The notes below the pieces were generated by a model that worked only from the letters and a program-made list of their open reading frames with translations, was not told the origin of the DNA and did not search any database. A stretch of 64,000 nt of DNA. Origin: Nitrosopumilus sp. (lineage in GTDB: Archaea; Thermoproteota; Nitrososphaeria; Nitrososphaerales; Nitrosopumilaceae). Of this stretch, positions 31,661 through 58,129 are shown piece after piece (positions within the stretch are counted from its first letter, which is position 1; each line of letters starts with the position of its first letter). The stretch is taken from the NCBI GenBank assembly GCA_965249555.1, contig OZ252243.1, positions 352,001 to 416,000 of the forward strand, written 5' to 3'. The position numbers and the translations under genes were made by a program.

Positions 31661-31813
31661 ATAGAAAGATCATAAAATGTGTGTTTATTTGGAAATGTCA
31701 ATTGTTATGAGATATTTGGTTTATAATGTTTTGTAGAACGTGCGTATTTTTTTAAATGATAGGCTTGCACGACAAAAATTGTTGAGTAAACATTGGTCAT
31801 CATTTTAGTTCCA

Positions 31814-32449
31814 TCAAGGAAAAATTTCATTTGCAGACACCTTTTTCCAAGCATCTCTTGTGGCAGATTTCTTTGTGTTAACATTGTCTTTCAAACGATA
31901 AAAGTTCAGTTCATTATTTTTCCAGTTGGATAATACCACGTCATCAGCATGATAATATCGTGCTAAAATTTGCATTCTTTTAATATCCATCAATGAGGGC
32001 CAAGATGCACTTCCTCCTTTTACTTGAATCAAAAGCATATCAAACAAGTCTCCAGGTTTTAGTCCAACTTTTTTTACCGTCTTTACATGGTCTTTTCTAA
32101 TTGCAAGAAGATCAACGATTCCAACTGCTTCATGTCCTTTCTTTCCTGTAAATTCAACTAGCTGCCACTTGGTCTTGCTTGTTAATTGATTTATTCTCCA
32201 CTTTGTAATCTCTAATGCAGCTTTTGCTGTATTTTGGGATTTTTCAAGTATCAAATCCCGATTTACTTTTTTCGTATGTGTTTCTTTTTTAATTGATTTT
32301 GTTTTTTTGGATTTTTTGGTTTGTGCTGCTTTGATTGCTGCTTGATGTCTTATTTTATCAATTCTAGTTTTTTCTTCAGCACCAGCATTTAGATAGTTTT
32401 CAAGTCTTGTTTTTGCAGCTTTTTTAGCTGCAGAATTTTTCTTTTTCAT
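31814..32449 (-). CDS. PD-(D/E)XK nuclease-like (Hjc-like) protein with a basic Ala/Lys-rich N-terminus
   Basis: GIVDLLAIRK...LIQVKGG; N-terminal AAKKAAKTR and AAIKAAQTK. Confidence 0.65.
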   Translation of the reverse strand: MKKKNSAAKKAAKTRLENYLNAGAEEKTRIDKIRHQAAIKAAQTKKSKKTKSIKKETHTKKVNRDLILEKSQNTAKAALEITKWRINQLTSKTKWQLVEFTGKKGHEAVGIVDLLAIRKDHVKTVKKVGLKPGDLFDMLLIQVKGGSASWPSLMDIKRMQILARYYHADDVVLSNWKNNELNFYRLKDNVNTKKSATRDAWKKVSANEIFP

Positions 32450-32481
32450 TTAATAGTTCTCCATTTCATACAATCAACCAT

Positions 32482-32922
32482 TCAATCTATTTTTTGTTTT
32501 TTACTCCATTTGTAAAGTGTAATATCAAGACCTTGTTGAGAATCTGTATCCACAAATTTTTTTACAAGGTGTAATTCATGAATATCTTTATCATCACGCA
32601 TTAATCCAAGACCAGTTTTGTTATCAATATCTTTGTCTTGTTTTGTAAGATAGTCAGTCAAAGTATCAGATAGAATTTTTGTCATGTTATCCAAGTCTTT
32701 GATATATTGTCCTTCGATCTTTGTATTTTTGTTAAGATAGTAGATTACATTTAAAGAAAAGAAAATTTTCTCACATTTTTTCTTTATTGTCTCTACATCG
32801 ATTTGTTTTTTTATTTTTTCTAGAAGATCTTTTTTTCTCTCTATAGGGTTATTGTTATCTGTCAGAGGTTCAAAGTTACGTATCTGTACGTGTAAAATAC
32901 GCTTTTTAAATCCAAACATCAT
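32482..32922 (-). CDS. RusA-like endodeoxyribonuclease
   Basis: KDLDNMTKILSDTL...RDDKDIHELHLVK matches the RusA DxDNxxKxxxDxL...DD motif. Confidence 0.65.
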   Translation of the reverse strand: MMFGFKKRILHVQIRNFEPLTDNNNPIERKKDLLEKIKKQIDVETIKKKCEKIFFSLNVIYYLNKNTKIEGQYIKDLDNMTKILSDTLTDYLTKQDKDIDNKTGLGLMRDDKDIHELHLVKKFVDTDSQQGLDITLYKWSKKQKID

Positions 32923-33204
32923 ACAAGATAATACAAATCATTGATTTAACCATTTTCAAAAAAAGAGGTAGCTAACTCCTGATCAGGTTCAAATCTTTAG
33001 AGATTTGAACGGGTTTAGTGATAGTTTTGAATCTATTAAGGCTTGAACCTTTCTTCGGGATAATTTATGATTCAGAAAAGATCAGGTTGTATAATTCTGA
33101 TTGTAGTGTTGAGAGTAAGAGAAAAATTTTAGAAGATATTGTTAATTTGTAGCCAGTGATTAGTGATTGGTATGATTTTTAATCTCTTATAAAAGAATGG
33201 AAAT

Positions 33205-33366
33205 ATGCAGCGGTTAGAACCCACTCTTCGTCATGAAATAAAAATTTCAAATACTGTATGTACTGCAGATTTAAAACAGAAAATCGATATTGGATCATTC
33301 GACAATTATGAATTTCTTAGTTCTAATTTAGAATTGTATAGATGTGGATATGTCAAAGATAATGGG
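33205..33366 (+). pseudogene. Truncated divergent TATA-binding-protein-like gene
   Basis: IKISNTVCTADLKQKIDI resembles the start of a TBP repeat. The sequence switches abruptly to hsdS-derived DNA at 33367. Confidence 0.5.
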
Positions 33367-34039
33367 ATCCATAAAGGGAATCAACACACCAACCTTCAGG
33401 GATTTTTTTTCTAATTTTTTCATCATAAACCATCTTTCCATCATTGGATTTGTAGGAAACCCCATCATCATCATCAGGAAATTCAAAATCAACAAACCAT
33501 AATTTGAAAATCATGTTACCAATTTGTTCAAGAATAATAGATTGTTTCTGAAAATTCTTTATTGATTTATCTAAGTTCCATAAAATATTAGAAATTTTGG
33601 ATTGTTCTCCAATTTCAGGAATTTTTTGTTTGATTGTACCTAAAAAATCCCAATCTGCTCGTGACATTTTAGTTCCAGTAGAACATACATCTGCATAATT
33701 TACAAATTCATGTGATGCCATCCAATAAAACAAAAATTTTTGATCAGTTCCAGGTTTTGCTCCAACTACAAAAATGTCAGTGGAGCAAACACCATCAAAA
33801 TCAGGACAGACTACCTTTCTAAAATAAGGCCTTAGTTTTCCAAAAAGAATATCGCCTTTGTGAAATATGAATTTGTTACTAATAGTTTCAGAACTTGTAC
33901 CAATACCAAGAAGATTCAATCTATCTTGTGCAATATACTCCAATCCCACATATGGTAAATTTTCTGTTTTATTTGGTTTGTAAGTATTTTTTTGTAATTG
34001 TGCACATTCATTAAACTGTTTTAATTTCCAGTTAGTCAT
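33353..34039 (-). CDS. hsdS: Half-length type I R-M specificity subunit (one TRD plus central conserved region)
   Basis: GDILFGKLRPYFRK, CSTDI, GTKMSR, PEIGEQSKI, FKLWFVDFEFP, PEGW, then truncated. Confidence 0.85.
   Translation of the reverse strand: MTNWKLKQFNECAQLQKNTYKPNKTENLPYVGLEYIAQDRLNLLGIGTSSETISNKFIFHKGDILFGKLRPYFRKVVCPDFDGVCSTDIFVVGAKPGTDQKFLFYWMASHEFVNYADVCSTGTKMSRADWDFLGTIKQKIPEIGEQSKISNILWNLDKSIKNFQKQSIILEQIGNMIFKLWFVDFEFPDDDDGVSYKSNDGKMVYDEKIRKKIPEGWCVDSLYGSHYL
33367..33500. repeat. Direct repeat copy 1 (hsdS central conserved region)
   Basis: Matches 37673-37803 except for one substitution and one extra CAT triplet. Confidence 0.95.
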
Positions 34040-37000
34040 ATATCATCACTATAATTACTTACAACCTGACTCATAATAATCGGAACGAATTTTTCAAAAG
34101 ATTCTACAGGAAAATCATATTCGATTAAAATTTTCTTTATACCTGAACGAATCTTTGCTTTGATACTTTCTTGATTAAGCCAATCAACACCAGTATTTTC
34201 TTTCATAAATTCAGTTAGTCTTGTTGCAATTTCTACTAGAGTTTGATCAGATTTTGTGTATTCCTTTCCAGCTGCAATAGCATCATAGAATGTGACTTCT
34301 TGCTCTGTCAATCCAAGTTCTTCTTCACGTTTTTTCTTTGCTGTTACATCATTTGCAACTTCTTCCATTCTACCCCAAACAGTTTCAAAATCTTCAAAAC
34401 GTCCATGATAATTTGATAGTGCTTTTTCTAATCGTTCTCTAAAGGATTTTTGTGCAACCTTATTTCGTTTGAATTTGATTGTAATTGCATCATCAAGTAA
34501 TTTGTGAGCAAGTTCAACTTTGAGGTTTTTCTGTTTTATTTGTCCAATTTTATTAAGATATTCTTCATTTAATTGGAATTTTTCAGGATCATATTCTATA
34601 GAATATTTTTTAAATGCATTTGCAGCCTTTAGATCTTTTTCAATCAATTTTCCAACTGCAGCATCTTTTTCAGGTGGGATATATGGGGTATTTGAGGAAT
34701 TTTTACCAATATAACTTCGGATTGTTTGGAAGAATATCATATCATCGTATACATCCTGACATGCAGGATCAGGAGTACACACATTGTATGCTTTAGTTAA
34801 CTCTGCAACATTTTTAAAATATTCAAGTTTTAATTTTTCACTTTCTTGTATTTCATTTACCAAATTCAAAAACAACTCATCGTATTGCTCAGATGATAAA
34901 CTATCACGATTCTCAATTGGAATCTCAAAGAAGCTCAGTAATTCTGCATGTTTATTTTTCATATATAGAAGAATTTCAGAAGTTGGCTTGAGTGTACCTT
35001 TGTAATCATTTTCATTAAACGATTTAAAAGACTTTTTTAAATCATCTGCAATTCCAATGTAATCAATTACAAGACCAGCAGTCTTTTGTGGTTTCCATTT
35101 TCTATTTACACGAGATGTTGCCTGGAATAAATTATGATCACGTAATGGTTTATCTATATACAAAGTATGCAAAAGTGGAGCGTCAAATCCTGTTAGATAC
35201 ATGTCACACACAATTAGTAATTCAACATCATTATCTTCATCTTTGAAATCTTCAATGAGATCTTTGATCTGTTTTTTTTTTCTGTAATGTTGTTTTAGAT
35301 ATTTTTCTTTTTCTTCTTGTTCTCGTGTGAGATCTTTAGTTTTTGCTGCACTTGAAATTACACAAATACATTTTGGAGGATTTGGTTGAGATGTTATATA
35401 TTCATAATATTTTGCAGCAGCCTTTTTGGTTGTAGCACATAACATCGCTTTTCCTTTTGGAATGACTGCTTTCTTTGAATTAAAATGAAATACAATATCT
35501 TCTGCAATTTCTTCCATTCTTTCTTTTCTTTCAACCAATGTCACCAGATCAGTCCATTTTTTAGATAATTCCCGACTTTGTTCTTCATTTAGACTTTGAG
35601 TAATCTCATCAAAGTCTTTTCCGATGAATTCATTGAGAATATGTTGTGGTAACAATCGTCCTTCATAATTTATCTCAACGGTAGTTCCATCTCTCACTGA
35701 TTCTCTTTGAGTGTAAATTGCAATAGGATCACCGAAGACATCGGTAGTTGAACGATCTTCAGCCTCAATTGGAGTTGCTGTAAAGCCTACTTTAAGAGCA
35801 TTAGGTAAAGCACGCCCAAGATTTTGAGCCATCTTTCCATACTCAGAACGATGTGCTTCATCGGCAATAATGATAATATTTTTCCGTGTGGATAATTCAG
35901 GATACTTTACTTTACCTTCTTTTTCTTTTTTTGTTACTTGGAATTTCTGAATTGTTGCAAAAATAATATTTCCTGCAGGAATTTGTAATTTTTTTCTTAA
36001 ATCTTCAATATCTTCTGCTTCTTGTAACATTGTTTCAGGTTTTCGAAAAGGAAAACCTGCAACTTCAAAGAAATCAGCAATTTGATTATCTAAATCATTT
36101 CTATCAGTAAGTACTACAAATGTAGGGTTATCTAACGATTCTACTTTTGATAACATCTCTGTAAAAAATATCATAGACATTGATTTACCAGAACCAGTAC
36201 TGTGAAAAACTATACCTAATTTATTTTTATTAGGATCATTGTAAACATCTATAGTTTTTGCCACAAGTTCATTAATAGTTTTAATTTGATGTTTTCTTCC
36301 AATTTTTTTAATAATTTGTTTACCATCATCTTCGTATTCTATAAAATGCTCTAGAATATTTAGTAGATTTTCTTTTGGAAATACTTGTTCTATTAAATAA
36401 TCTAGTCTATATCCCTCTATAATATCTTCGTCATCATATTCTTCTCCAAGATCATTTTTTTCGTACCATGTAAAGAAAAATTCAGGTGGAGATTCAAATG
36501 TGCCATATTTTGCATGTTTTCTATCACTAATTACATTAAACGCATTATAATGAAATAATTTTGGAATATATTTTTGATAATCTGTTTTTCCAAGCTGATC
36601 ATATGCTTTTTGAATTGTTGCAGATCTATCAGTTGGATTTTTGTATTCTAATATCACAATTGGAATTCCATTTAGAAATATCACATGATCTGCTCGTCTT
36701 GTTTCAAATTGTTTTACTGTAAATTGTCGCATTGCAAGAAAATTGTTTTTTAATGGCTTAGTCCAATTTACAAAATCAATATGTTCTGTTTGGGTTTTTC
36801 CATGTTGATCAGGAATTTTGACATTAACCCCATTAAGTAATAAATCGTGGAATTTTTGATTACTTACCATCATGTCATTTGATGAAATTGAATATAGTGA
36901 GCCTATTGCTGTATTATAGGCATCATTTGGCAGTCCAGGATTGATGATTTTGAGATTTTCTAGCAGTCTTTTCTCTAAAATCACTTCAGTTAGTGCCTGT

Positions 37001-37122
37001 CTTTCAGGATTTTGTGTTCCTGGATGATAATCTGGGCCCCAAAGAGTATCATATCCTAATTTATCAAATAGATTATGAGCAGATTTTTCTACCCAATTTT
37101 CATCTAATTTTTTAATTGCCAA
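34036..37122 (-). CDS. hsdR: Type I restriction endonuclease subunit R; probable TTG start at 37122
   Basis: ADHVIFLNGIPIVILEYK nuclease motif, HSTGSGKS, ADEAHR, FTATP, MYLTGFDAP, QATSRVNR. Confidence 0.95.
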   Translation of the reverse strand: MAIKKLDENWVEKSAHNLFDKLGYDTLWGPDYHPGTQNPERQALTEVILEKRLLENLKIINPGLPNDAYNTAIGSLYSISSNDMMVSNQKFHDLLLNGVNVKIPDQHGKTQTEHIDFVNWTKPLKNNFLAMRQFTVKQFETRRADHVIFLNGIPIVILEYKNPTDRSATIQKAYDQLGKTDYQKYIPKLFHYNAFNVISDRKHAKYGTFESPPEFFFTWYEKNDLGEEYDDEDIIEGYRLDYLIEQVFPKENLLNILEHFIEYEDDGKQIIKKIGRKHQIKTINELVAKTIDVYNDPNKNKLGIVFHSTGSGKSMSMIFFTEMLSKVESLDNPTFVVLTDRNDLDNQIADFFEVAGFPFRKPETMLQEAEDIEDLRKKLQIPAGNIIFATIQKFQVTKKEKEGKVKYPELSTRKNIIIIADEAHRSEYGKMAQNLGRALPNALKVGFTATPIEAEDRSTTDVFGDPIAIYTQRESVRDGTTVEINYEGRLLPQHILNEFIGKDFDEITQSLNEEQSRELSKKWTDLVTLVERKERMEEIAEDIVFHFNSKKAVIPKGKAMLCATTKKAAAKYYEYITSQPNPPKCICVISSAAKTKDLTREQEEKEKYLKQHYRKKKQIKDLIEDFKDEDNDVELLIVCDMYLTGFDAPLLHTLYIDKPLRDHNLFQATSRVNRKWKPQKTAGLVIDYIGIADDLKKSFKSFNENDYKGTLKPTSEILLYMKNKHAELLSFFEIPIENRDSLSSEQYDELFLNLVNEIQESEKLKLEYFKNVAELTKAYNVCTPDPACQDVYDDMIFFQTIRSYIGKNSSNTPYIPPEKDAAVGKLIEKDLKAANAFKKYSIEYDPEKFQLNEEYLNKIGQIKQKNLKVELAHKLLDDAITIKFKRNKVAQKSFRERLEKALSNYHGRFEDFETVWGRMEEVANDVTAKKKREEELGLTEQEVTFYDAIAAGKEYTKSDQTLVEIATRLTEFMKENTGVDWLNQESIKAKIRSGIKKILIEYDFPVESFEKFVPIIMSQVVSNYSDDI

Positions 37123-38387
37123 ACCTGAATTTTTCCTGAAATTAATTTTGGTAAAAGAGTTTCTCGTAAATAAATCAGATTTGTACATGCAAGATCATTA
37201 CATTGAATTTTGTTAAAAATTGAAAAAGATAAGCTTTGAAATTTATTCAAAATTTGTTTAGATGGAAGAGCTATCATAAATTTTTCCATATCTTTTTTTG
37301 TGATATGACCAAGACCAGTAGTCTGTTTATTACGAGCAATCTCAATCAAAGCAGTTTTCAGATATTTTAATAAGAAAAATATGAAAGGTTTTTGAAATTT
37401 ATTTTGAAAATTGATTTTGAAAATATGTTGGTTAAGAATAGCAGATCCACCAGTCCAAATAAAAACATCGATTGATGAATCTGGACTTCCAGACCATGAA
37501 AACAAAATATCTCCAGTATAAAGTTTGTATTTAGGATCAACATCTTTGGTTGTAAATTTAGTTTCTGGTAGAACGCCATACTTTAATTCAACTATTTTTA
37601 TTATTGGTAATCCTGTTCGATCATCTGAAAAATCAGACATTGTGAATGCACTTCCATTTACATAATTTGCACATCCATAAAGGGAATCAACACACCAACC
37701 TTCAGGGATTTCTTTTCTAATTTTTTCATCATAAACCATCTTTCCATCATTGGATTTGTAGGAAACCCCATCATCATCAGGAAATTCAAAATCAACAAAC
37801 CATGATTTAAAGATGGAATGAATTATTTTTTCAAGATAAAAATTTTGTTTTAGAAAATTTTGAATTAAATTGTCCAAAGATAACAAAATATTTGATATTT
37901 TAATTTGTTCTTTGATGTCTTCTGGGAATGAAATTGGTAATTTTTTCAAAGTAGTTTTTGTAAGTTCCAAAAATGTAGTACCGTTTGAGTTTTGTTCAAG
38001 AAATGATTTATTATTTTTCAACCAATAAAATAAAAAATAATTATGAATTTGTTTTGAGCAATGTAATACAATAAATCCTTGATTAACAGCCATAGGTACA
38101 CTATTGATAACTACTTTACCCACAGGAGCTCTACTAGTTAGTAAAACGCATCCTGCTTCATTTATTCTTCTGGGTCCATTTTCTAGACCAATTTTTGTAA
38201 TCATTTTTTCAGTGTTTTCAATATGAACCGAATTCAGATTTGTTACTTGTTTAGGAGTTAACCAGAGAATTTTACCATTCCAAAAATCTGGATTTTTTGT
38301 ACTAGGTGTACTACCGCCACTAACTTCAACTATTTCTTCAAAAATACGAGTTTTCCATTTAGATTTTAATTCTAATTTAGATTTCAA
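37104..38387 (-). CDS. hsdS: Type I R-M specificity subunit with two TRDs
   Basis: GGSTPST, SRAPVG, NQGF, EQIKI, WFVDFEFP, PEGW, LNQHIFK, LRETLLPKLISG. Confidence 0.95.
   Translation of the reverse strand: MKSKLELKSKWKTRIFEEIVEVSGGSTPSTKNPDFWNGKILWLTPKQVTNLNSVHIENTEKMITKIGLENGPRRINEAGCVLLTSRAPVGKVVINSVPMAVNQGFIVLHCSKQIHNYFLFYWLKNNKSFLEQNSNGTTFLELTKTTLKKLPISFPEDIKEQIKISNILLSLDNLIQNFLKQNFYLEKIIHSIFKSWFVDFEFPDDDGVSYKSNDGKMVYDEKIRKEIPEGWCVDSLYGCANYVNGSAFTMSDFSDDRTGLPIIKIVELKYGVLPETKFTTKDVDPKYKLYTGDILFSWSGSPDSSIDVFIWTGGSAILNQHIFKINFQNKFQKPFIFFLLKYLKTALIEIARNKQTTGLGHITKKDMEKFMIALPSKQILNKFQSLSFSIFNKIQCNDLACTNLIYLRETLLPKLISGKIQVWQLKN
37673..37803. repeat. Direct repeat copy 2 (hsdS central conserved region)
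   Basis: Matches 33367-33500. Confidence 0.95.
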
Positions 38388-39984
38388 ATCCTAATTCCTT
38401 CAAATTAGCTTGAACTTGTTTATCAAGTGTTTTAGATTCTTCAGAAAGTTTTGTATATTCTTTTACATGTCGTTTCATTTTATCCTCAAATGGTTCATCA
38501 TCTTCTTCAAGATCTTTTGCCCCAACAAAACTACCAGGAGTTAATACATTGCCTTTGTCTACGATTTCTTCTTTTGTTGCTTTTTTGCAATATCCAGGAA
38601 CATCTTTGTATTTTGGATATCCTTTTTCACCTACAAATGACAAATAAGTTCCTGCAATCTTTTCTAATTGTTCTTTAGAAAATTCATTTTGAACCCTATT
38701 AATTGGAGTGAAAATCTTTCTAGCATCAATGAATAAAGTTTCACCAGATCTTTTTCTATAGTGTCCATTATCTTTGTTTTTTGTAAAAAACCAGAGACAG
38801 GCAGGAATTGGAGTAGTAGAAAATAATCCTTCAGGTAAAGCAATCATACAATCTACTAAATCAGCGGCAACAATTTTTTTCCTAATTTCTGCTTCAACAC
38901 CTGAAACATTCATCGAGCCATTTGCTAAAACTAGACCCATTCTGCCATTTTTATCATCTAAATGATGCAACATGTGTTGCATGAATGCATAGTTTGCATT
39001 GGTATCTTTTGGAGTACCATAATCCCATCTTTTATCAGCAGATAATTGAGTATAGCCCCATTCTTTGACATTAAAAGGTGGATTTGCTAAAATGAAATTT
39101 GCTTTTTTATCATCTGGAAATTTGTCATGTTTGAGTGAATCTCCAAGATAGATATTGGATATATCAATCCCACGTAATGCAAGATTCATCTTGCAGATAC
39201 GCCAAATTCCATCAATTACTTCTTGACCATAAATTGAGAGATCGGATTTTTTTCCGTTATGAGCATTCAAAAATTTATGAGATTGAACAAACATACCACC
39301 TGAACCACATGCAGGATCAAAAACTATACCTTTGAAAGGCTCTAAGATTTCAACCATTAATCGTACTACTGAACGAGGAGTATAGAATTGTCCTCCACGT
39401 CTTCCCTCACTCATTGCAAATTTCTTGATAAAAAATTCGTATGCTCTACCAAATGTATCGGTATCTAGCGCTTCTTTTGTTCCAAATCCAATTTTTGAAA
39501 ATTCATTAATTAATGCAGTAAGATTTTCGTTTGCAATTTTAGAGTCTGCAAAAACTTGAGGTGTAACATCAGATAATACTGGATTGCTTCGCTCTATTTT
39601 CCGGAGAATCTGATCAATTTTTAATCCAAGATTTCTTTGAGTTGCAGTCCTCATTAAATCAGACCATCTACAACCTTTTTCTAAAAATGGAATATTTTTT
39701 TGTAAATACTCATCTTTATCTTCAACAAAAATTTCTCGTTCTTTATCTGATTTTGCAGATTTTTCAATCTCTTTTTTTCTCTCTTCAAATCTGTCTGAGA
39801 TAAATTTCAAAAACATCAAACCTAGTGCGATATATTTGTAGTTTGAAACTTCAACTGTTCCTCTTAATTGTTCAGCTGTTTCCCATAATGATTCTTCAAG
39901 AGATTTTGGTATTTTTTCTTTTTTTGATTTTGTTGATTTCTTTTTTGATTTAGCTTTAGTTGATTTCTTTTTTGATTTTGCCAT
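38377..39984 (-). CDS. hsdM: Type I R-M N6-adenine methyltransferase subunit
   Basis: LWETAEQLRG, GQFYTPRSV, DPACGSGG, NPPFN. N-terminal duplicated KSKKKSTK. Confidence 0.96.
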   Translation of the reverse strand: MAKSKKKSTKAKSKKKSTKSKKEKIPKSLEESLWETAEQLRGTVEVSNYKYIALGLMFLKFISDRFEERKKEIEKSAKSDKEREIFVEDKDEYLQKNIPFLEKGCRWSDLMRTATQRNLGLKIDQILRKIERSNPVLSDVTPQVFADSKIANENLTALINEFSKIGFGTKEALDTDTFGRAYEFFIKKFAMSEGRRGGQFYTPRSVVRLMVEILEPFKGIVFDPACGSGGMFVQSHKFLNAHNGKKSDLSIYGQEVIDGIWRICKMNLALRGIDISNIYLGDSLKHDKFPDDKKANFILANPPFNVKEWGYTQLSADKRWDYGTPKDTNANYAFMQHMLHHLDDKNGRMGLVLANGSMNVSGVEAEIRKKIVAADLVDCMIALPEGLFSTTPIPACLWFFTKNKDNGHYRKRSGETLFIDARKIFTPINRVQNEFSKEQLEKIAGTYLSFVGEKGYPKYKDVPGYCKKATKEEIVDKGNVLTPGSFVGAKDLEEDDEPFEDKMKRHVKEYTKLSEESKTLDKQVQANLKELGFEI

Positions 39985-40063
39985 AATTTTTCACCTAAAT
40001 TCTAAAATTCTCCTCATTCATAACATCTCAAATTCATTTAAAAACATGATCGGGTTCTTAACA

Positions 40064-40728
40064 TTACACATTTTCAGTATTCCCTGAGATTTTCACTAGT
40101 AGATATCGTAATTTTCCTCTATTGAATGAACCAATCTGTGAGTAATCTGCCCAGTTTAGGTAATAAGTTCCAGAAATATTCAGTGTTTTTTCTCTGCCTG
40201 CAGTAATTCCAGCAGATGCTTTCTCTGACCACTCTAAAGTACCATGAATGATTTTTCCATCAAATATTCTAAAATCAGCATCCACAGTATCATTACTTTG
40301 AGGAACATTCCAATAACTGGAATCATTAGTTAGAATTATTGCAAACCAATAGTCTTTTCATGCTTTGATACAATTTTTTCTAATCGCTCAATATCTTTGA
40401 GATAGTCATATCTACCTAAATCCTGAGCGCACTGATCCATCAATTTGAATTTTTCATCATGTATTGATTCTTCTAGTTTTCTTGTTTTGTATTTGAGTTC
40501 AATTGCATAATTATTTCCAAAATTATCTTTAATCCATAAATCAACAAACATTCTCTTTGAAATGTTTGCAGGTTTGTATTCAAAACGAATATCAAGTTGT
40601 GGATGATCTTTTTGAATTTGCCAAGCTAGTGCATGCTGAAAATCAGCTTCAATGTGAAAGACAGGTCTGCTTTTGGCTAGTTTTGTTATAGATGAAAAAA
40701 TAATATCTTGAAATTCCATACTCATCAT
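40064..40728 (-). pseudogene. PD-(D/E)XK nuclease-like gene split by a 1-nt deletion
   Basis: EADFQHALAW...VDLW...AIELKYK...KDIERLE. Adding one T at 40343-40345 restores IGFAIILTNDSSYW and joins the two track ORFs. Confidence 0.75.
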
Positions 40729-40813
40729 CTTTTGTTTAGTCCCTGTTCTAATCGTAATAGCATATTTTTGATGTCTCGCAATTCACCTAGAATATCATTG
40801 TGTATTGCACTCA

Positions 40814-43378
40814 TCAATCATCACTCCAAGTATAATTTCTTGGTGTGCCAACTGGATTACCGTATCCATAATTTTTGAATCCACGATATTTTATAGATTT
40901 TTCAAGTTCTTCGTTATAATCAATGTCAAGTGACTTTTCTTGATGTTGAGGTGCTAAAACTGATTTATCCAAAATAGTATTTTCAGGAAATGAAGAACCA
41001 TTCATCCAATTGTTTGTAGGAATTTCTTTTTGTTTTGGTTCTGGTTTCTTTACAATGACAGGAGCAGTTTCAGAATTTAATGACTCTAAGATTTTAATGG
41101 CACGATGTTTGGAAAGTGAATCATTGCATCGCTCACAATGATACATGTGAGTACAAAGAGGACAACCTCGAGGTTCTTGACAATTACATTCATTTACCAT
41201 TTGTAATGCTCTACTAAACACTGCATCAAGTTTTCTAAATACTGCCTCGCATGCACCATTTCCACCTTTAACAGAATTATCATAAAGATAGATCATTCCA
41301 TCAGGAGAGGAATATCCAGATACATCAGAACTTGAATTATTGGCAATTGTTAGACTTGCATTAACTAGTAAATGCTCAGTTGCATGAATTCCTGCTGTGT
41401 TTTCACTATTATTTTGAGTACTTCCTAATTCAGGTGCTTTGAAAACAAATCCCACAGTAGGAAATTCAAACTCCATAGGAGTTCCATACATTATGGAGTC
41501 ACCTAATTGCTTGTTTGTTCTTACAGAGATTTTTCCATATCCATAAATTTTGATTTTCATTAATAGTTCACAAAATGTGGCTTCAGTATGTTTTACTGTA
41601 GCAGTCTTGATTATACGCATGATTTGAGGCTTGATTTGAAGAATAGGGATAGTATAGTATGGGTCTACATTGTAACTTTCATAGTTTAATGGCTCTACAA
41701 TTGCTTTAGGATATTTTGATTTAGAAATATAATCAATGACATAGTAATGCTCACCATTATGCATGTAAATGGCTCCACTATAAAATTTAAAAAATGCAAC
41801 AGGAGTTGCACGAGTTCCAATTGTTTTACGATAACCTCGTTTTTCAATGTATACATCATCTCCCATTCCACGAATACTATAGTCTTTGAGTAAAATTTTG
41901 GTTCTATTGTAATCTAGATGATATTTACCATCACGCTCTACAAGATTTTGCTCATCTAAATGATACTTTAAGGTATATTGCAAATCTTTTGCAAGTGCTT
42001 CATCTTTATCGATTGGTTTTGCTGCAGCTAAAAGCAAGAACATTGTTCTTTTAACAAATCTATTAAGTGGATCAACTAGAACAGATTCTTTTGGAATTAG
42101 ATAGTCAGATGGATGATTCTTGTACCATTGTGAAATTGGGTCTTTGCCTAAAACTAGAAATGCGTAACTGCGTTGTTGATTTCGTCCTGCACGACCAAGT
42201 CTTTGTTTGAATCGTGAAAAAGAAACAGTTGATGAAATCACAACATCAACATTACCAATATCAATTCCAAGCTCTAATGTAGGAGTACAAGAGATTGACA
42301 TTATTTTATTCTCTCTGAATTGTCTTTCAATGTCTTCTCGTTCTTTAATTAATAATCCTGCTCTGTGAACTGCAATTGGGATTTTTCTCTCCCTTAATGC
42401 CTTCCAGGCAAAAAGTTCTGCTTTGTCATGAGAATCATGAAAAACAATTGTTTTCTTTCCTTGATGATGGAATTTTTCAAGTAAATCAAGCATAATGTCT
42501 AGTTGTGATGGATCAGTCTCAGTTCCCAGTTCTGAAACAATTGCAAAATCAGTGATTCCAGGCTTGTTTTTCTCCTCAACAAATTCAAATTCTCTGCCAC
42601 CTAGTTTTTCACAAAATTCTTGGGCATTATCCAATGTAGCTGATGAGGCTACAATCTGAAGATTCTCAGATAATCTTTTGAGGGATTTGATGACATAGTG
42701 CACATTTGCGCCTAGAATTCCACCATAATAATGAACTTCATCAATTACCAGAGTCTGAATATTACCAAAAAATGGCTTCCACTGTGAATTTTCATTTTGT
42801 AATTGTACTTTGATAAAATCAAAATTTGTGATGAAAATATCAGGAGAATTATGCAATACATAACTTCTGAGATCCTTGCTTGGAACATCACCATCAACAA
42901 TATTTACTCGCATTTCACATTCATCTACAAATGCTTTAATCTTTCTGTGTTGGTCTTTTGCAAGGGCTTTTGTAGGATAAACAATTAATGCAGATGGTTT
43001 TTGTTTGCTTGGATTATTTAGAATATTTTGAATTATTGGAATTAAGAATGCTTCAGTTTTACCGGTTCCAGTGGGTGCTGAAATTACTACATCATTATGA
43101 TTAATAATTTTAGATATTGCATCTTGTTGATATTCATATAATCCATTTGGGAATTTTTTTATCAATACATTTCGTAAGATACCAGATAGTTCTGTGAGTT
43201 CATTAATTTTTTTACCAATTTTAATTTCAGGTTTTTTTATTGTTTCAAAGTGAGATAGTTTGAATTTGTCTTGAGATGTTCCAATTAAAAGAATGCTTTT
43301 TGTTACATTATCAATATCATGATTTCCAATAATTGCTTTTACTTCAGATGGGATTTGAAGTGGTTTATCAATACTCAA
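40814..43378 (-). CDS. SF2 DEAH helicase with DUF1998 (YprA/MrfA/Hrq1 family)
   Basis: APTGTGKT, YPTKALAKDQ, DEVH, SATL, TPTLELGIDIG, QRLGRAGR, HATEH, LYD...GGNG, CNC-x5-CPLC. Confidence 0.92.
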   Translation of the reverse strand: MSIDKPLQIPSEVKAIIGNHDIDNVTKSILLIGTSQDKFKLSHFETIKKPEIKIGKKINELTELSGILRNVLIKKFPNGLYEYQQDAISKIINHNDVVISAPTGTGKTEAFLIPIIQNILNNPSKQKPSALIVYPTKALAKDQHRKIKAFVDECEMRVNIVDGDVPSKDLRSYVLHNSPDIFITNFDFIKVQLQNENSQWKPFFGNIQTLVIDEVHYYGGILGANVHYVIKSLKRLSENLQIVASSATLDNAQEFCEKLGGREFEFVEEKNKPGITDFAIVSELGTETDPSQLDIMLDLLEKFHHQGKKTIVFHDSHDKAELFAWKALRERKIPIAVHRAGLLIKEREDIERQFRENKIMSISCTPTLELGIDIGNVDVVISSTVSFSRFKQRLGRAGRNQQRSYAFLVLGKDPISQWYKNHPSDYLIPKESVLVDPLNRFVKRTMFLLLAAAKPIDKDEALAKDLQYTLKYHLDEQNLVERDGKYHLDYNRTKILLKDYSIRGMGDDVYIEKRGYRKTIGTRATPVAFFKFYSGAIYMHNGEHYYVIDYISKSKYPKAIVEPLNYESYNVDPYYTIPILQIKPQIMRIIKTATVKHTEATFCELLMKIKIYGYGKISVRTNKQLGDSIMYGTPMEFEFPTVGFVFKAPELGSTQNNSENTAGIHATEHLLVNASLTIANNSSSDVSGYSSPDGMIYLYDNSVKGGNGACEAVFRKLDAVFSRALQMVNECNCQEPRGCPLCTHMYHCERCNDSLSKHRAIKILESLNSETAPVIVKKPEPKQKEIPTNNWMNGSSFPENTILDKSVLAPQHQEKSLDIDYNEELEKSIKYRGFKNYGYGNPVGTPRNYTWSDD

Positions 43379-43944
43379 TTAAAGGAACTCCAAAGAATTT
43401 TTTGTCCTGGTTTTAGTGCTGATGATTTTACTTTATGTTGCATTACTGCTTGTTTTGCAATTGCTTCTTTGACCACTTTATTGTATCTGTTTGATTTTAC
43501 TCTAATAGAAACATCAGTGCATAGTGTGTCGGGATTAATTACTTGCTGTCCAATCTGTTCTGCTACCCTTACCAAGTCTCTATCACAGGTAACTAAAACA
43601 GAATCAGTGAGTATTGCATATGCTAGAATTTGGTTATCAGGAATGTGAAGCAACTCATGATTCTCAACTAATTTTTCTGCAAGGAGTGACATCTCATCTG
43701 TAATCTTACCAACTGAGATCTTCACTCCAAGAGAGGATTCAAGGTTTTCCTTTGCATCATCAAAGTGATAATCTGCTCTTTTTTCAATTTCATAAATTGA
43801 TACGGTAGTAAGAACAACTTTGGAATGCTCCAAATCAACACGAATTTTTAGCATATCAAGATAGTTAGGATATTCGTGTGCCTTTCTTCCAACACAGGTA
43901 TCCAGAGTGAATCTGCTCTCCGATCCAAAGTTCTCTCTTTTCAT
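43375..43944 (-). CDS. PIN-domain (VapC-like) protein with C-terminal extension
   Basis: TLDTCV, IYEIE, HIPDNQILAYA, VLVTCDRDL. 4-bp overlap with the helicase gene. Confidence 0.8.
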   Translation of the reverse strand: MKRENFGSESRFTLDTCVGRKAHEYPNYLDMLKIRVDLEHSKVVLTTVSIYEIEKRADYHFDDAKENLESSLGVKISVGKITDEMSLLAEKLVENHELLHIPDNQILAYAILTDSVLVTCDRDLVRVAEQIGQQVINPDTLCTDVSIRVKSNRYNKVVKEAIAKQAVMQHKVKSSALKPGQKILWSSFN

Positions 43945-43956
43945 ACATTAGTATAC

Positions 43957-43996
43957 CTTTATTCATTAATAAAGATACCTTTATCTACATATAAAG
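43957..43996. promoter_or_regulatory. Twin palindromic operators CTTTAT-N6-ATAAAG with a 22-bp period
   Basis: CTTTATTCATTAATAAAG at 43957-43974 and CTTTATCTACATATAAAG at 43979-43996. Further CCTTTAT half-sites at 44058 and 44079. Confidence 0.7.
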
Positions 43997-44123
43997 CCAT
44001 TATTTCAGTATATATAATCATATAATATCTTACATTTTAGATAATGACCATCGATCACCTTTATTATCATATATTAACCCTTTATTCATAGCATTTTTAT
44101 ATCATAATTGAACATAAAAGGTA

Positions 44124-45383
44124 TTGGCAGAAAAAATTGCTTACTCTGTGCTTGAAATTCACGCACGAAGAATCAGGGAATTAGTTGAAAGTAAAAAATA
44201 CAAGAATCCAGAGGATTTTCTCAAAAATGCTATTGAGATACTGCTAACCTGGGAGAGTGAACATCCTGAAGAATGCATGGAATTAATGAAAACTCTGATG
44301 CCATTTTCACCCCAGCAAGAAGGATTCATGAAGATGACTATGAATCCTGATGAGTTACAAAAACAATTTGGAGGTTTAGAAATTGATAAAGACCAAAGTG
44401 AAGCATTAGAGCAAAAAAGACTTGCTTTACGAGATGATGATCATTTAAAATTACGAGATAATTTTTCACATGCTAAAAAATACATTGAATCATTAAAGAT
44501 TACAACTCCAGAAAACATAATCCCATATGATGGATTTCCTCTGCTGTCAGGTTTTTACAGTAGATTCTTGCCAGTAAAACTAGTCTTAACAACACTTGGT
44601 CATTTGCTTGAAAGAAGCAAGGATACTAAAATTGAATTAAAAGAATTACGTGTTTATGCATATGATATTGTAGAAGAGATTGCTGAAACTTTGAGCAAAT
44701 ATGAAAATGAACATAATATTCCAAGAAATAAAAAAATGTCAACAGGTCTTCCAAAAAAAGGAAGTAAAGACAAAGATGAAGAAAAGATTGCAATGGCTCA
44801 AAAAAGATTTAAAGATCAATTTGTGGGCAAAGTAAGAAAAAGTAGAAGACTAGAATCAAATCACTTTGAAGGAGCATTATCTGCATTAGGATTAATTGAT
44901 GCATTTGAAAAAGATAGTAAAGTGTATGTTTCACTAACTAAATTAGGAAAGGAATTCTTTTTGATTGATAATCCAGTTATGGAAGGAGAGTATGAAAAAG
45001 GACCATTAACAAAACAAGAATCAAACTTTATCTTGAAAAAGTTAATTCCTCAACGAGAATTAGAACAAGAATTTGTAAAAACTGCACTCTCTGTTGTAAA
45101 AAGATTTCAAAAGGGAACTGCTCAACCCAAAGTATTCAAAAACGATTTTGAAAAAGTAACTTATGCCTTAAATGATGAGATAAGAAAGACAGTAATAAAA
45201 TATCTAAAGGAAAATCCAAAGGCTCAAGAAATGTATAATCTTAATCATTTAGATCCTAAAATGGAGGCATCTGAGCGTAAAATCACGCAATGGCGACTTG
45301 CAACTATGGGCAGACTGGCAGAGTTGAAGGTAGTGAATTGGAGAATAAATGAGAAAGGAGATTCAGAGTATTCTCTGAATTAG
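44124..45383 (+). CDS. 419-aa protein with N-terminal ribbon-helix-helix-like domain and an uncharacterised (wHTH-like) C-terminal region
   Basis: RIRELVESKKYKNPEDFLKNAIEILL matches the CopG/RHH pattern (L V x x G/K x Y x S/N x x E/D F). SLTKLGKEF and MGRLAELKVV are wHTH-like. Confidence 0.65.
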   Translation: MAEKIAYSVLEIHARRIRELVESKKYKNPEDFLKNAIEILLTWESEHPEECMELMKTLMPFSPQQEGFMKMTMNPDELQKQFGGLEIDKDQSEALEQKRLALRDDDHLKLRDNFSHAKKYIESLKITTPENIIPYDGFPLLSGFYSRFLPVKLVLTTLGHLLERSKDTKIELKELRVYAYDIVEEIAETLSKYENEHNIPRNKKMSTGLPKKGSKDKDEEKIAMAQKRFKDQFVGKVRKSRRLESNHFEGALSALGLIDAFEKDSKVYVSLTKLGKEFFLIDNPVMEGEYEKGPLTKQESNFILKKLIPQRELEQEFVKTALSVVKRFQKGTAQPKVFKNDFEKVTYALNDEIRKTVIKYLKENPKAQEMYNLNHLDPKMEASERKITQWRLATMGRLAELKVVNWRINEKGDSEYSLN

Positions 45384-47236
45384 GAATCATTTAGAATATT
45401 TTTGAGTTCATCAGGTGACCATAATTCTTCAGCAATTTTTTGATACAATTTTTGTCTTTCATCAATAGCTTTTTTTGTGAATTTTTCATAATGTTTAAAG
45501 GAAAGTCCTGAATCCCTACAATATTTTACAAATCCAGGATTTTTTGTATAACATTTAGAATTCAGAGATTGAGCAAGTAAATTTTGTCCAAAGTAATGAT
45601 CTAGTTTTTCTGAATATGGAGATGCGCCAAAAGATTGATTGATGCCTCTAGGTATCAAAATTAACCCACCTAAACGATTTCTATAATCATCAAAATCAGA
45701 TTCATTTTCAAACTCGTCTTTATGTTCCATGAATTTGTTAGCCCAAATATGTTCAATTTCAAATCTATTTTTTCGTTCACGTTTAACATATGTTTCAAAA
45801 CTAGAATTTGGAATTCCAGATTTTTCTTCGATATGGCTAGTAATTCTTACAAGTAAAAATTTTACAAAACTTTTATTCATTTTTTCAAGACCGTAGTCAT
45901 AGACTTTATCCAATTTTTCTTTCATATCAGTAATATTCTTGGCAAATATTTCAGTTAATTCATCAACAGATTTATCACGAATTTCTGTTACTAGCTGATA
46001 TATTCTAATTCTAACATTAGAATGGCCTATACTACTACCATTTACTTTTCGTCGAATTATAAAAGATTCCAAATACCTTGCAACAAGATCAATTTTTTGA
46101 TCAACAGTGTTTTTATCATCGGAAATCATAAGTGGGGACATCAACAAAGGAAAGTAAAGAGATGGTGCAAATCTGACATGATCCACATAGAAAACATGTT
46201 CTAAATTTTTATTAAAATTGTGTGCTGCCTTGTAGATTTTTACATAAATCTTTGAAAAAAATACAAAATTGGTTTCTATAAAGTTCCTTTGTTCATCTAT
46301 CTCAGACAATCCAATTTTGTCTTGGTTATCTTTGAACCAGCTATGAGGTTTAGTTGCTATTACTTCAAAATCTTCATCATGGGTATCTCTTGGCTTCCTG
46401 ATTGTTTCGGCGTATTTTGCTCTAAACCATGATTGAATAAACTCCATATCTGCATTTTTGTTAAGGTCTTTGATTTTTGACATGTGTTTTTTCCATAATT
46501 CATTCAACCTCTTTTTTTCATCTTCTTCTGAAAATTTAGATAAAAGATGTCCTTTGAGCATTTCAGGAGGAGTTAGACTCAATCCTCGATCGTTCATTGT
46601 TTCAAAAATTTTGTATGCATCATCATCGGACCATGTTTTAATGACTACAAACATTACATTTTCTTTTAACCAATCAATAAAATAAGGTAAGGCATCATCA
46701 AGTGATAGTTCAGTAATTAATGCTGAGATATCTTCATATCTTTCATAAATGTTTTTCACAGATTCATTTTCATCAGTTGGATCATAATCATTATTATGAA
46801 ATAGTTTCATCATACATTTCTCGCGATCTTTAATTTGTAAATTTAATGAAGACTCTCCATATGCACGAGATGCAATTAATTGATCTAAAGGTTCCTCAAG
46901 ATTTTTTTCTTTTTGTAAATTATTAAGAAAAATCAAAAGTAAAGTAATAGAAGTTAGTCTCTGTTGTCCATCGATAATAGATGAAATATTATCTTTGACA
47001 TTAAGAATAATTGAACCCATGTAATATTTTGAATATGACTTTACTTCTTTTCGATCATGTTTATTTCCAGATTTATAGTTTTCAAAAAATTTTGAAGACA
47101 GATCCTCAATTAGATGTTCAATGTTTTCTTTTTCCCACCTGTACTCTCTTTGAAATACATCCACCTCATATTTTCTGCCAAGAATTTCTCTCAAATTTCT
47201 TGCATCTGCAGTAATGTATGAAGATTGAGAAGACAT
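45380..47236 (-). CDS. DUF262-DUF1524 GmrSD-like modification-dependent (type IV) restriction endonuclease
   Basis: FQREYRW, IIDGQQRLTS, FETMNDRGLSL, EIEHIW, RLGGLILIP..IN. Confidence 0.9.
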   Translation of the reverse strand: MSSQSSYITADARNLREILGRKYEVDVFQREYRWEKENIEHLIEDLSSKFFENYKSGNKHDRKEVKSYSKYYMGSIILNVKDNISSIIDGQQRLTSITLLLIFLNNLQKEKNLEEPLDQLIASRAYGESSLNLQIKDREKCMMKLFHNNDYDPTDENESVKNIYERYEDISALITELSLDDALPYFIDWLKENVMFVVIKTWSDDDAYKIFETMNDRGLSLTPPEMLKGHLLSKFSEEDEKKRLNELWKKHMSKIKDLNKNADMEFIQSWFRAKYAETIRKPRDTHDEDFEVIATKPHSWFKDNQDKIGLSEIDEQRNFIETNFVFFSKIYVKIYKAAHNFNKNLEHVFYVDHVRFAPSLYFPLLMSPLMISDDKNTVDQKIDLVARYLESFIIRRKVNGSSIGHSNVRIRIYQLVTEIRDKSVDELTEIFAKNITDMKEKLDKVYDYGLEKMNKSFVKFLLVRITSHIEEKSGIPNSSFETYVKRERKNRFEIEHIWANKFMEHKDEFENESDFDDYRNRLGGLILIPRGINQSFGASPYSEKLDHYFGQNLLAQSLNSKCYTKNPGFVKYCRDSGLSFKHYEKFTKKAIDERQKLYQKIAEELWSPDELKNILNDS

Positions 47237-47407
47237 GAAATCATTGGATTTGTGGAGAATTTAAAATTATATTAGTATCTAAAGTATGGCTCTGGTCGCA
47301 TATTATTGATTCCAATGAGATTCTGTAAAGTTACAGCCTATCAGATGTGATAGTGTTGAGATTTAGATGAAGGAGATCATTTCACTATTAAAAAATCTAA
47401 AAAATAA

Positions 47408-47701
47408 TTACCAGATTTCTTCATATGCCTTTTTTCTACGTCTTGGTATCAGATAACACGTTTTGATTATTTTTTTTGAAAAATTTACATGAATTATTAA
47501 TCGGAAATTACCGTTATCAAATTTTACTTTATGCTTATTGGACAAAGAACCTTTAAGTGGAATTGCTTCCTTCCATGGGTCGTTCTTAATATCATCTAAT
47601 TTTTGAAACAGAATTATTTTTTTATTGTCCTCTAATTTTTGAAGGCATCTTTGATATTCAAAAGAAGATGTATCTATACTGAATTCTAAAACGTCGTTCA
47701 A
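47408..47701 (-). CDS. RelE/ParE-family toxin
   Basis: KLDDIKNDP...PLKGSLSNKHKV...NFRLI...RRKKAYE. Confidence 0.7.
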   Translation of the reverse strand: MNDVLEFSIDTSSFEYQRCLQKLEDNKKIILFQKLDDIKNDPWKEAIPLKGSLSNKHKVKFDNGNFRLIIHVNFSKKIIKTCYLIPRRRKKAYEEIW

Positions 47702-47710
47702 GACAACCTC

Positions 47711-48424: not shown

Positions 48425-48464
48425 TTACAAAATCCCCAAAATGAGCCGACCCTTGATAAGGAGA

Positions 48465-48500
48465 AGATTCCGTCATTGAGCCTATAACTTGACGGAATCT
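48465..48500. other. Inverted repeat / hairpin AGATTCCGTCA-N14-TGACGGAATCT
   Basis: Perfect 11-bp arms at 48465-48475 and 48490-48500. Confidence 0.7.
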
Positions 48501-48670: not shown

Positions 48671-48671
48671 A

Positions 48672-58128: not shown

Positions 58129-58129
58129 T

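Follow-up and report, generated by a model that had tools for sequence, protein, structure and literature searches.

In a stretch of 64,000 nucleotides of the Nitrosopumilus sp. contig OZ252243.1 (positions 352,001 to 416,000, hereafter the window), seven genes on the minus strand face a gene encoding a protein of 419 residues, here called p419. The three genes at this divergent junction encode p419, a PIN-domain nuclease and a helicase of the YprA family. Judged from their sequences, there is about an even chance that they form an accessory module, a variant of YprA-helicase defence, for which a type I restriction-modification (R-M) system and a GmrSD-type enzyme would be neighbouring layers. 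A defence role is proposed because p419 and PIN are paired, because the pair is joined to helicases at several junctions, and because the genes lie in a hot-spot island of low G+C content with GmrSD and R-M genes as neighbours; the catalytic motifs of helicase and PIN are also intact. The first-pass annotation of this DNA had read the whole minus-strand run as a single defence operon. That interpretation held for the accessory helicase, the defence-type island and the link between PIN and helicase, whereas R-M and a small nuclease found little support as integral parts.

The features of the proposed module are the following (coordinates are those of the window, lengths of proteins are in amino acids, aa).

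44124..45383, plus strand: p419, 419 aa, predicted DNA-binding protein, without library match
43945..44123: divergent control region, 179 bp, with two adjacent 18-nt palindromes
43375..43944, minus strand: PIN nuclease, 189 aa (PF01850)
40814..43378, minus strand: YprA/MrfA-type superfamily 2 (SF2) helicase, 854 aa, with a C-terminal MZB/DUF1998 zinc module (Pfam)

Domains were searched with Pfam in 16 open reading frames (ORFs) of the window, and PADLOC and NCBIfam were used as further libraries.

The p419-PIN pair and the genes behind it

Homologues of p419 were detected in 31 of 401 Nitrosopumilaceae genomes. A class-wide sample gave 20 positive genomes out of 223 inside this family versus one weak partial match among 177 genomes outside it, and every named cluster of the p419 family (267 clusters) was thaumarchaeal. 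The divergent neighbour of p419 was a homologue of PIN in 19 of 20 fetched loci and in L015, that is, in 20 of the 21 loci other than the window. The reverse search yielded 23 best full-length PIN matches in 22 genomes, and p419 was found in 21 of the 22. In the exception, L091, a CARF/Csa3-like regulator with a winged helix-turn-helix (wHTH) occupies the place of p419 beside PIN, in keeping with p419 being a regulator. What is conserved as a unit is p419 together with its divergent neighbour PIN, a pair with a patchy distribution that is restricted to the Nitrosopumilaceae. At another locus an unrelated Cys-rich ORF of 151 aa (L046:10451-10906) was found at the place of PIN, with p419, a 71-aa ORF and the helicase kept.

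Of the 22 loci, counting the window, nine have an MZB helicase after the pair; in eight it lies behind PIN and in one (L046) behind the non-PIN ORF. The helicases are of the 854-aa type in the window and L015, of 820-825 aa in L036 and L046, of 902-906 aa in L048 and L049, and of 2181-2216 aa in L042, L044 and L045. The large protein of L042 was recognised by PADLOC as DrmA (E 1e-289) fused to DrmB (6e-105), followed by DrmC (2e-18), and those of L044 and L045 were 58-82% identical to it over their full length. At L043, only a 487-aa fragment of DrmA was found. The front pair meets at least three kinds of DUF1998 helicase, namely the window clade, a clade of 820-906 aa, and a fused DrmA-DrmB accompanied by DrmC. 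A survey of the neighbourhoods of PIN and helicase homologues, which the first-pass annotation had proposed, was run, and it showed the p419/PIN pair to be conserved and repeatedly placed ahead of DUF1998 helicases.

Two of these groups have small ORFs of their own. L036 and L046 carry a Cys-rich ORF of 70-71 aa ahead of the helicase (L036:8022-8234, L046:10906-11121); it is zinc-ribbon-like, 66% identical between the two loci, joined to its neighbours by overlaps of 1-4 bp and without a family match. The DISARM-like loci L042, L044 and L045 belong to three genomes of one genus, their DrmC is 181 aa long, and they are preceded by PIN and a conserved ORF of 72-75 aa.

The shortest arrangement was observed in L048 and L049, where his, GSDH and TiaS genes surround just p419, PIN and helicase, a minimal form without methyltransferase. 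A Dam-like or PD-Lambda-5_B-like methyltransferase, with OLD and UvrD nearby, was found at L041, and SNF2 clusters at L046 and L050; other p419/PIN loci held only small ORFs. In two genera, PIN lies tail to tail with a nurA-herA-mre11-rad50 operon (L039:1876-8813, L091:2608-9614). The window has its own nurA-herA-mre11-rad50 operon at 55475-61799, about 10 kb from p419.

Components of the proposed module

No match to p419 was found in Pfam, PADLOC or NCBIfam. Its AlphaFold2 (AF2) model, with a predicted local distance difference test score (pLDDT) of 84 and a predicted template modelling score (pTM) of 0.79, displays an N-terminus of about 44 residues, a helical linker and a tandem winged-helix array from about residue 136 to 419. 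In the monomer, the N-terminus consists of a coil (1-10) and two helices (11-22 and 29-44), and the model of residues ~1-44 is compatible with a ribbon-helix-helix (RHH) that pairs as a dimer. The C-terminal 280 residues gave structure matches to the FokI recognition domain (Z 8.7, 181 residues aligned), N.BspD6I (Z 8.0), BrxA (Z 7.8) and BpuJI (Z 7.4), and also to PaqCI, and residues 311-419 matched many wHTH structures. A protein language-model search (Atlas) led to the FokI and AlwI recognition domains, at 0.75 only. Foldseek of the model against the PDB returned nothing at E <=0.001, with unrelated helical proteins in the top rows, and a sequence-profile search of the PDB gave nothing relevant. 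Because middling Z values and scores of 0.75 are within the range of chance, the C-terminus is called a tandem winged-helix DNA-binding array and nothing more. p419 is proposed to be a regulator and/or a DNA-recognition subunit. The first-pass annotation had called it an RHH sensor. The first word fits the coil and two helices of the model, as well as four members of the family that are named Arc/MetJ RHH by JGI, but it finds no counterpart in the three domain libraries. The second word was dropped, as no sign of sensing was seen and the large C-terminal part resembles winged-helix DNA-recognition modules.

The sequence CTTTAT-N6-ATAAAG occurs at 43957-43974 and again at 43979-43996. With at most one mismatch allowed, these are exactly the two copies in the window, and both fall in the 179-bp intergenic region; the expectation for all 64 kb was 0.64 copies, and two or more turned up somewhere in 15 of 100 shuffled sequences. 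The same region contains three of the four exact ACCTTTAT words of the window, together with further ACC(C)TTTAT copies and TATA-like runs. Exact palindromes were found at the homologous place in the loci of four other organisms (L015, L036, L037 and L041); any other matches among 100 fetched loci were duplicate fetches of the same places or came from this genome. Thirteen aligned intergenic regions share conserved blocks, and the length is 176-192 bp in 14 of 22 loci. The twin operators that the first-pass annotation had placed between PIN and the 419-aa gene are thus present as two adjacent palindromes, and their role as operators is predicted from sequence.

The helicase matched DEAD (5e-35), Helicase_C (5e-18) and MZB/DUF1998 (PF09369, 7e-13) in Pfam, the last over residues 668-743 with 49.5 bits versus a cut-off of 24.2. 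The motifs GTGKT, DEVH and QRLGRAGR, and six cysteines (C731, C733, C739, C742, C748 and C751), are invariant in its three-member clade. TIGR03817 aligned over residues 80-768 (E 2e-81) with 274 bits, below the cut-off of 874; by these sequence matches the protein is a member of the YprA family and not an equivalog of the TIGR03817 model. The genome encodes a second MZB helicase (G000:475721-477967), 39% identical to the window copy, which is a genus-wide orthologue (~836 aa in relatives) in fixed synteny with a short-chain dehydrogenase in 11 relatives' loci. A helicase match was obtained in 41 of 41 genomes searched, with at most 41% identity in the 40 relatives, and only two closer clusters, of 78% and 77% identity, were found among 5.8 billion proteins. 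The window helicase is an accessory paralogue. Since a second, genus-wide MZB helicase is present, it is not the sole, vertically inherited Hrq1 orthologue of the genome; being so was among the conditions that the first-pass annotation had named as refuting its proposal.

A locus search with the single helicase protein retrieved no locus in genome or metagenome contigs. The search with the 3-sequence alignment gave none in genome contigs and one in metagenome contigs, L015, which is the sole other locus of the window clade seen. In a quick maximum likelihood tree, rooted at midpoint and with long branches flagged, the window clade lies beside the housekeeping clade on a long stem, the helicases of L036, L046, L048 and L049 form a clade of their own (support 100), and a third, syntenic YprA clade without PIN stands apart. 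The possibility that the L048 and L049 helicases are orthologues of this third clade was rejected on the basis of the same tree, long branches included. A PIN neighbour of the housekeeping YprA was likewise rejected, as no PIN profile match was obtained in 12 of its loci, nor in 7 loci of the third clade.

For the PIN protein, PF01850 matched with E 7e-7 (30.3 bits versus a cut-off of 23.6), and the tetrad D15, E52, D103 and D121 (D-E-D-D) is invariant in 22 sequences. Its AF2 model (pLDDT 85.9) has a VapC-like fold, and the best Foldseek matches were archaeal and bacterial VapC structures (E 6e-6 to 1e-4), with RNA-free RNase P weaker; a profile search of the PDB gave only weak PIN and HARP rows (E 0.03-0.5). 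The core fold is extended by a long helix at the C-terminus and by a tail with the conserved sequence KPGQKIxWRSF. The window and L015 copies are only 41% identical, and the genes on either side 77-82%; by this comparison PIN evolves much faster than its neighbours. No fusion of PIN to longer proteins was found among 8000 candidates scored, which is weak evidence. A shorter related PIN family (~140-158 aa, without the C-terminal tail) is widespread, the PIN profile matching 109 of 401 genomes and 30 of 41 in one genus. By analogy with other helicase-nuclease pairs, PIN is proposed to be an effector nuclease; an abortive or backup role, as in the first-pass annotation, would be pure inference.

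Neighbouring cassettes and the genomic island

According to the ORF listing, the minus-strand genes facing p419 are, in order, PIN, helicase, small nuclease, hsdM, hsdS, hsdR and a half-size hsdS, which confirmed the seven co-oriented genes of the first-pass annotation. The features outside the three-gene module are the following.

40064..40728, minus strand: small PD-(D/E)xK-like protein, 221 aa with an extra A (homologue alignment, public-run contigs)
40728..40336 (130 aa) and 40285..40064 (73 aa), minus strand: ORFs of the small nuclease in the record
38377..39984, minus strand: HsdM, type I methyltransferase, 535 aa (Pfam N6_Mtase, HsdM_N; PADLOC MTase_I)
37104..38387, minus strand: HsdS, 427 aa, two target-recognition domains (Methylase_S, PADLOC Specificity_I)
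34036..37188, minus strand: HsdR, type I restriction subunit, 1050 aa (TIGR00348, Pfam)
33353..34039, minus strand: half-size HsdS, 228 aa, one target-recognition domain (Methylase_S, PADLOC Specificity_I)
45380..47236, minus strand: GmrSD-type (type IV) restriction endonuclease (GmrSD_N, GmrSD_C)
31661..49552: genomic island, ~17.9 kb, of lower G+C (G+C, comparison with relatives)

The PIN and helicase genes overlap by 4 bp, the gaps from helicase to nuclease and from nuclease to hsdM are 85 bp and 79 bp, and hsdM/hsdS and hsdR/half-hsdS overlap by 11 bp and 4 bp. The 4-bp overlap is as described before, and the gaps of less than 90 bp were recovered once the nuclease was read as a single ORF of 221 aa.

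In the record this nuclease is broken. Alignment of five full-length homologues (207-216 aa) starts in frame -3 and continues in frame -2, the shift falling near 40345-40351. In 3 of 3 public runs, which come from one study and two samples and are possibly the source of the assembly itself, the contigs carry an extra A behind 40342 (AAAA versus AAA in the record). With it, a single ORF of 221 aa aligned end to end with all five homologues. The frameshift of the record is likely a homopolymer or assembly error, or a strain variant. A pseudogene reading was dropped after the run contigs restored the single ORF, and the single nuclease gene of the first-pass annotation was borne out. Residues E22, D24, D58 and E72-x-K74 are invariant in the five homologues, a pattern that fits a PD-(D/E)xK nuclease at the level of motifs. 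No Pfam, PADLOC or PDB sequence or profile match was obtained for this family, and the Atlas search led to MunI at 0.76 only. In the Atlas the family lies closest, with scores of 0.97-0.98, to clusters of bacterial hypothetical proteins 206-231 aa in length.

Homologues of the 221-aa protein were found in five other genomes, and never beside PIN or p419. One lies at the 3' end of a type I R-M system (L067), where it overlaps the end of an EcoEI-type hsdR by 4 bp, one ahead of a type III-like R-M system (L065), one near type I parts (L066), and two among housekeeping genes (L068, L069). From these contexts the gene is probably independent or R-M-linked. Its earlier description as a partner of the helicase was not upheld, the family being present in five other genomes without PIN or p419 and the small ORF at the same place in L015 being unrelated.

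L015, a metagenome contig, has the same order and orientation as the window: GmrSD, p419, PIN, helicase, small ORF, hsdM, hsdS, hsdR, a YgjP-like peptidase and a second hsdS. Identity to the window was 82% for p419, 77% for the helicase and 41% for PIN, and dropped to 33% for hsdM and 26% for hsdR; the small ORFs of the two loci gave no BLAST match. The L015 ORF, of 113 aa, has its own D...ExK motif and is PD-(D/E)xK-like, unrelated to the 221-aa protein. L015 also carries CARF-wHTH, NERD and UvrD-PDDEXK genes. Judged by these identities, the R-M systems of L015 and the window are different cassettes of different families. The linkage of PIN, helicase and R-M that the first-pass annotation looked for in other genomes recurs in the layout of L015, but in L015 only and with a different R-M cassette. 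R-M as an integral part of the system was not supported by this comparison, since it lies behind the helicase in just one (L015) of the eight other helicase-bearing loci, with 26-33% identity.

The type I R-M system of the window is complete, with HsdM, HsdS and HsdR all present at full length. HsdM matched N6_Mtase (2e-102, 343 bits) and HsdM_N (2e-19) in Pfam and MTase_I (1e-141) in PADLOC. Two Methylase_S stretches (Pfam, 2e-37) and Specificity_I (PADLOC, 8e-86) were recognised in HsdS. HsdR reached 537 bits with TIGR00348 of NCBIfam, versus a cut-off of 285, and 3e-198 with REase_I of PADLOC, and contains the Pfam domains HSDR_N, SWI2_SNF2, T1R_D3 and T1RH-like_C; its true start is possibly the TTG at 37107, abutting the hsdS stop. 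The half HsdS has a single Methylase_S stretch (Pfam, 2e-10; PADLOC Specificity_I, 3e-38). An extra specificity gene lies behind hsdR in both cassettes, the half hsdS in the window (33353-34039) and a full second hsdS after the YgjP-like peptidase in L015 (L015:18815-20868), which hints at specificity switching or recombination remnants.

The GmrSD gene, which is absent from the first-pass annotation, converges on p419 (47236..45380) with an overlap of 4 bp. It matched GmrSD_N (DUF262; 9e-34, 117.8 bits versus a cut-off of 33.2) and GmrSD_C (DUF1524; 1e-10, 41.8 bits versus 23) in Pfam. A GmrSD gene is convergent with p419 in L015 as well (L015:6187-7980), but BLAST found no match at E 1e-3 between its product and that of the window gene. 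The place is conserved and its occupant replaced, as for R-M.

The island is bounded by a core gene of 125 aa (31283-31660) and a core DUF359 gene (49553-50047). Its G+C content is 0.28-0.33, versus 0.35-0.37 in the flanks. In genome G308, the two flanking core genes are only 143 bp apart and the interval is empty, while unrelated inserts of about 9-10 kb occupy it in two other genomes. The distance from PPase to Mrp in six genomes of the genus was 1.8, 2.6, 10.3, 11.4, 18.8 (this genome) and 51.5 kb. The hot-spot interval lies near the H+-pyrophosphatase (H+-PPase) and Mrp/NBP35 genes, and the genomes compared were G308, G002, G009, G021 and G373. These comparisons mark the region as an island, with GmrSD among its genes, at a hypervariable hot spot. 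No direct repeats of at least 14 nt flank the island, the single one detected being a 12-mer; no tRNA gene was found in the window, and no integrase domain among the island ORFs scanned with Pfam. Five island ORFs gave no significant Pfam, PADLOC or NCBIfam match: 31814-32449 (211 aa), 32482-32922 (146 aa), 47408-47701 (97 aa), 47711-48424 (237 aa) and 48777-49106 (109 aa). Among the genes of thaumarchaeal integrated elements, those for type I R-M subunits rank with the most frequent, according to the passages of Krupovic et al. (2019, PMC6563490) drawn on here; PIN and DUF1998 are not mentioned in those passages.

Competing readings and comparison with known systems

If the three genes defend the cell, a p419 dimer would bind the twin CTTTAT-N6-ATAAAG palindromes of the divergent promoter region and thereby control the operon of PIN and helicase; DNA recognition within the system might be a further task of p419. 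The helicase would be translationally coupled to PIN and, like MrfA or DrmAB, might load on single-stranded DNA of invading or damaged replicons and translocate 3' to 5'. PIN would be the effector, in the role that MrfB, DrmC or HamA have in related helicase-nuclease pairs. The type I R-M system, the 221-aa gene and GmrSD would then be separate, swappable cassettes at the hot spot, acting as parallel layers. Several observations weigh against this reading. No intact helicase lies behind the pair in 12 of 22 p419 loci (at L043 just the DrmA fragment), so that it may be optional cargo, and the loci are related, so that the 9 of 22 amount to about three independent junctions and not nine. L048 and L049 have housekeeping surroundings, L039 and L091 lie beside nurA-herA-mre11-rad50, and the closest type to the window helicase, at 39-41% identity, is the housekeeping 'YprA only' one, which is linked to repair and not to defence. 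In fold, p419 resembles FokI and BrxA only to a middling degree (Z 7.4-8.7, where helical models often score by chance), and Foldseek was null. At each of the two loci of the window clade, the helicase has a small PD-(D/E)xK-like ORF and type I R-M behind it, a possible coupling that we treated as coincidence. Finally, no PADLOC model matches PIN or p419, which fits novelty and equally a role outside defence.

Consider p419 and PIN as an oversized, VapBC-like addiction pair that stabilises the island or aborts infection, with helicases, R-M and other genes as cargo. The best matches of the PIN model to VapC toxins, its invariant acidic tetrad and fast evolution, an N-terminus of p419 compatible with RHH, as in many VapB antitoxins, and the varied cargo, with 12 of 22 loci lacking an intact helicase, would all agree with it. 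However, the genes are divergent and not in one operon, the 'antitoxin' would be 409-466 aa long with a large DNA-recognition-like domain, and its replacement by an unrelated regulator in L091 would leave a toxin without antitoxin. Nor is the cargo random: three kinds of DUF1998 helicase directly follow, with 4-bp overlaps in the window, L015, L036 and L046, although a genome holds just 2-3 such helicases. We regard an addiction pair as unlikely. Somewhat harder still to accept is a DNA-repair pair, an archaeal counterpart of MrfA-MrfB with a FEN-like PIN nuclease, a damage-responsive p419 and an incidental place in the island. Patchy distribution (31 of 401 genomes), the hot-spot island beside R-M and GmrSD, the ordinary YprA orthologue kept by the genome, a fast-evolving PIN that is atypical for a repair nuclease, and the same front pair ahead of DrmAB-DrmC, a defence architecture, all speak against it. 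It draws its appeal from the window helicase being closest to the housekeeping, repair-type YprA branch, where 'YprA only' and MrfAB are placed in the portions of Bell et al. (2025, bioRxiv 10.1101/2025.09.15.676423) used here, from PIN adjoining nurA-herA-mre11-rad50 in L039 and L091, and from the housekeeping surroundings of L048 and L049.

All seven genes could also be one integrated system, in which a DISARM-like module of PIN, helicase and nuclease either depends on the type I HsdM and HsdS to mark the cell's own DNA or serves as a backup to type I restriction. Co-orientation and gaps of at most 85 bp would suit it. So would the repetition in L015 of helicase, small PD-(D/E)xK-like ORF, hsdM, hsdS and hsdR with a non-orthologous R-M and ORF, since positions and not sequences could be selected, and the p419/PIN pair flanking DrmAB-DrmC in L042 and L045, with a C5 methyltransferase on the p419 side. 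Yet the C5 methyltransferase of L042 adjoins an EcoO109I-like endonuclease, so that the two look like an ordinary type II pair, and L036, L046, L048 and L049 lacked any recognised DNA methyltransferase over about 9 kb. The 221-aa family and the 113-aa ORF of L015 occur elsewhere without PIN, p419 or YprA helicase, a TTTTTAAAT run in the 79-bp gap ahead of hsdM could be a terminator or a promoter belonging to hsdM, and the layout is present in two loci only. We hold this integrated system to be rather improbable. More speculative again, and in our opinion quite doubtful, is a split restriction-like machine in which p419, more than a repressor, would read sequence through its FokI/AlwI-like winged-helix array and pass foreign sites to a YprA or DrmAB helicase and the separately encoded PIN, with the adjacent methyltransferase (type I HsdM here, C5 methyltransferases in the DISARM-like loci) as self-mark. 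If it were true, p419 and PIN, as a portable front end, would make defence systems out of several DUF1998 helicase clades in ammonia-oxidising archaea. The defence variant of three genes, with R-M and GmrSD as neighbours, remains the reading that we prefer.

DISARM, Druantia, Dpd and ARMADA are all driven by DUF1998 helicases. The ammonia-oxidising archaea count among the most abundant microbes of the sea, and to our knowledge almost nothing is known of their resistance to viruses. Here a lineage-specific pair, made of a fast-evolving PIN and a predicted DNA-recognition protein that belongs to no catalogued family, is repeatedly combined with DUF1998 helicases. If the module defends, it would bring a new type of nuclease and a new accessory protein to YprA-based immunity. 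One front end before three helicase clades is a natural experiment that bears on what these helicases sense, and the site behind the helicase is a fixed one at which R-M cassettes are exchanged. No description of a PIN-YprA or PIN-DISARM pairing was found in the portions of the literature that our searches reached. PIN is not mentioned in the consulted main text of the YprA census of Bell et al. (2025), the supplements of which may list such neighbourhoods; that text describes repair and defence branches of the family with their nucleases.

The first-pass annotation had noted that the layout fits none of the canonical models, and the domain searches of the window proteins agreed, with neither a DrmA/DrmB pair nor a phospholipase D (PLD) protein recognised. 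As in DISARM, a DUF1998/MZB SF2 helicase is central, a nuclease gene and a methyltransferase are close by, and in three related genomes (L042, L044, L045) p419/PIN stands directly ahead of fused DrmA-DrmB and DrmC. In contrast to DISARM, the window helicase is a compact YprA of 854 aa with only partial DrmA matches (8e-16, 2e-14) and with no DrmB among the best 25 of 81 PADLOC families; no PLD domain (DrmC) was found in the 16 ORFs scanned, nor SNF2 DrmD or DrmE. The methyltransferase scores as a type I HsdM with its own HsdS and HsdR, whereas PIN and p419 are not known parts of DISARM and match no PADLOC model. The helicases of Druantia and ARMADA are large, with a BrxA-like insert, zinc modules and a C-terminal nuclease domain, as far as described in the parts of Bell et al. 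(2025) used here. The window helicase differs from them by its 854 aa and the absence of a nuclease domain in Pfam, and its DruE matches are fragmentary, in 3-4 short stretches each. With Hachiman (HamA-HamB), Druantia III (DruH-DruE) and AbpAB, in the accounts of them consulted, the module would share the logic of a sensor helicase and an effector nuclease, and the location in defence islands; it differs in the PIN nuclease family, the helicase clade and its size, the HamB, DruE and BrxHI matches of PADLOC covering the generic helicase core only.

Resemblance to MrfA-MrfB and to 'YprA only' is closer for the helicase itself, in its size, its DEXH core plus MZB, the full-length TIGR03817 match, a paired gene for a small nuclease, and housekeeping YprA as nearest relatives (39-41% identity). 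No MrfB-type 3'-5' exonuclease was found by Pfam among the ORFs adjoining the helicase. Unlike in MrfA-MrfB, the nuclease is a VapC-like PIN encoded upstream and not a DnaQ-type exonuclease encoded downstream, a divergent gene for a predicted DNA-binding protein is added, and the helicase is an accessory, island-borne one on a long branch. VapBC, for its part, has in common with the front pair a PIN fold with four acidic residues, a partner whose N-terminus is modelled as RHH-like, and palindromes in the promoter region. It differs from the front pair in that here the genes are divergent, without a small antitoxin gene upstream, and the conserved partner has 409-466 aa with a FokI/BrxA-like winged-helix array, whereas PIN bears a C-terminal helix and a conserved tail and is apparently translationally coupled to a helicase.

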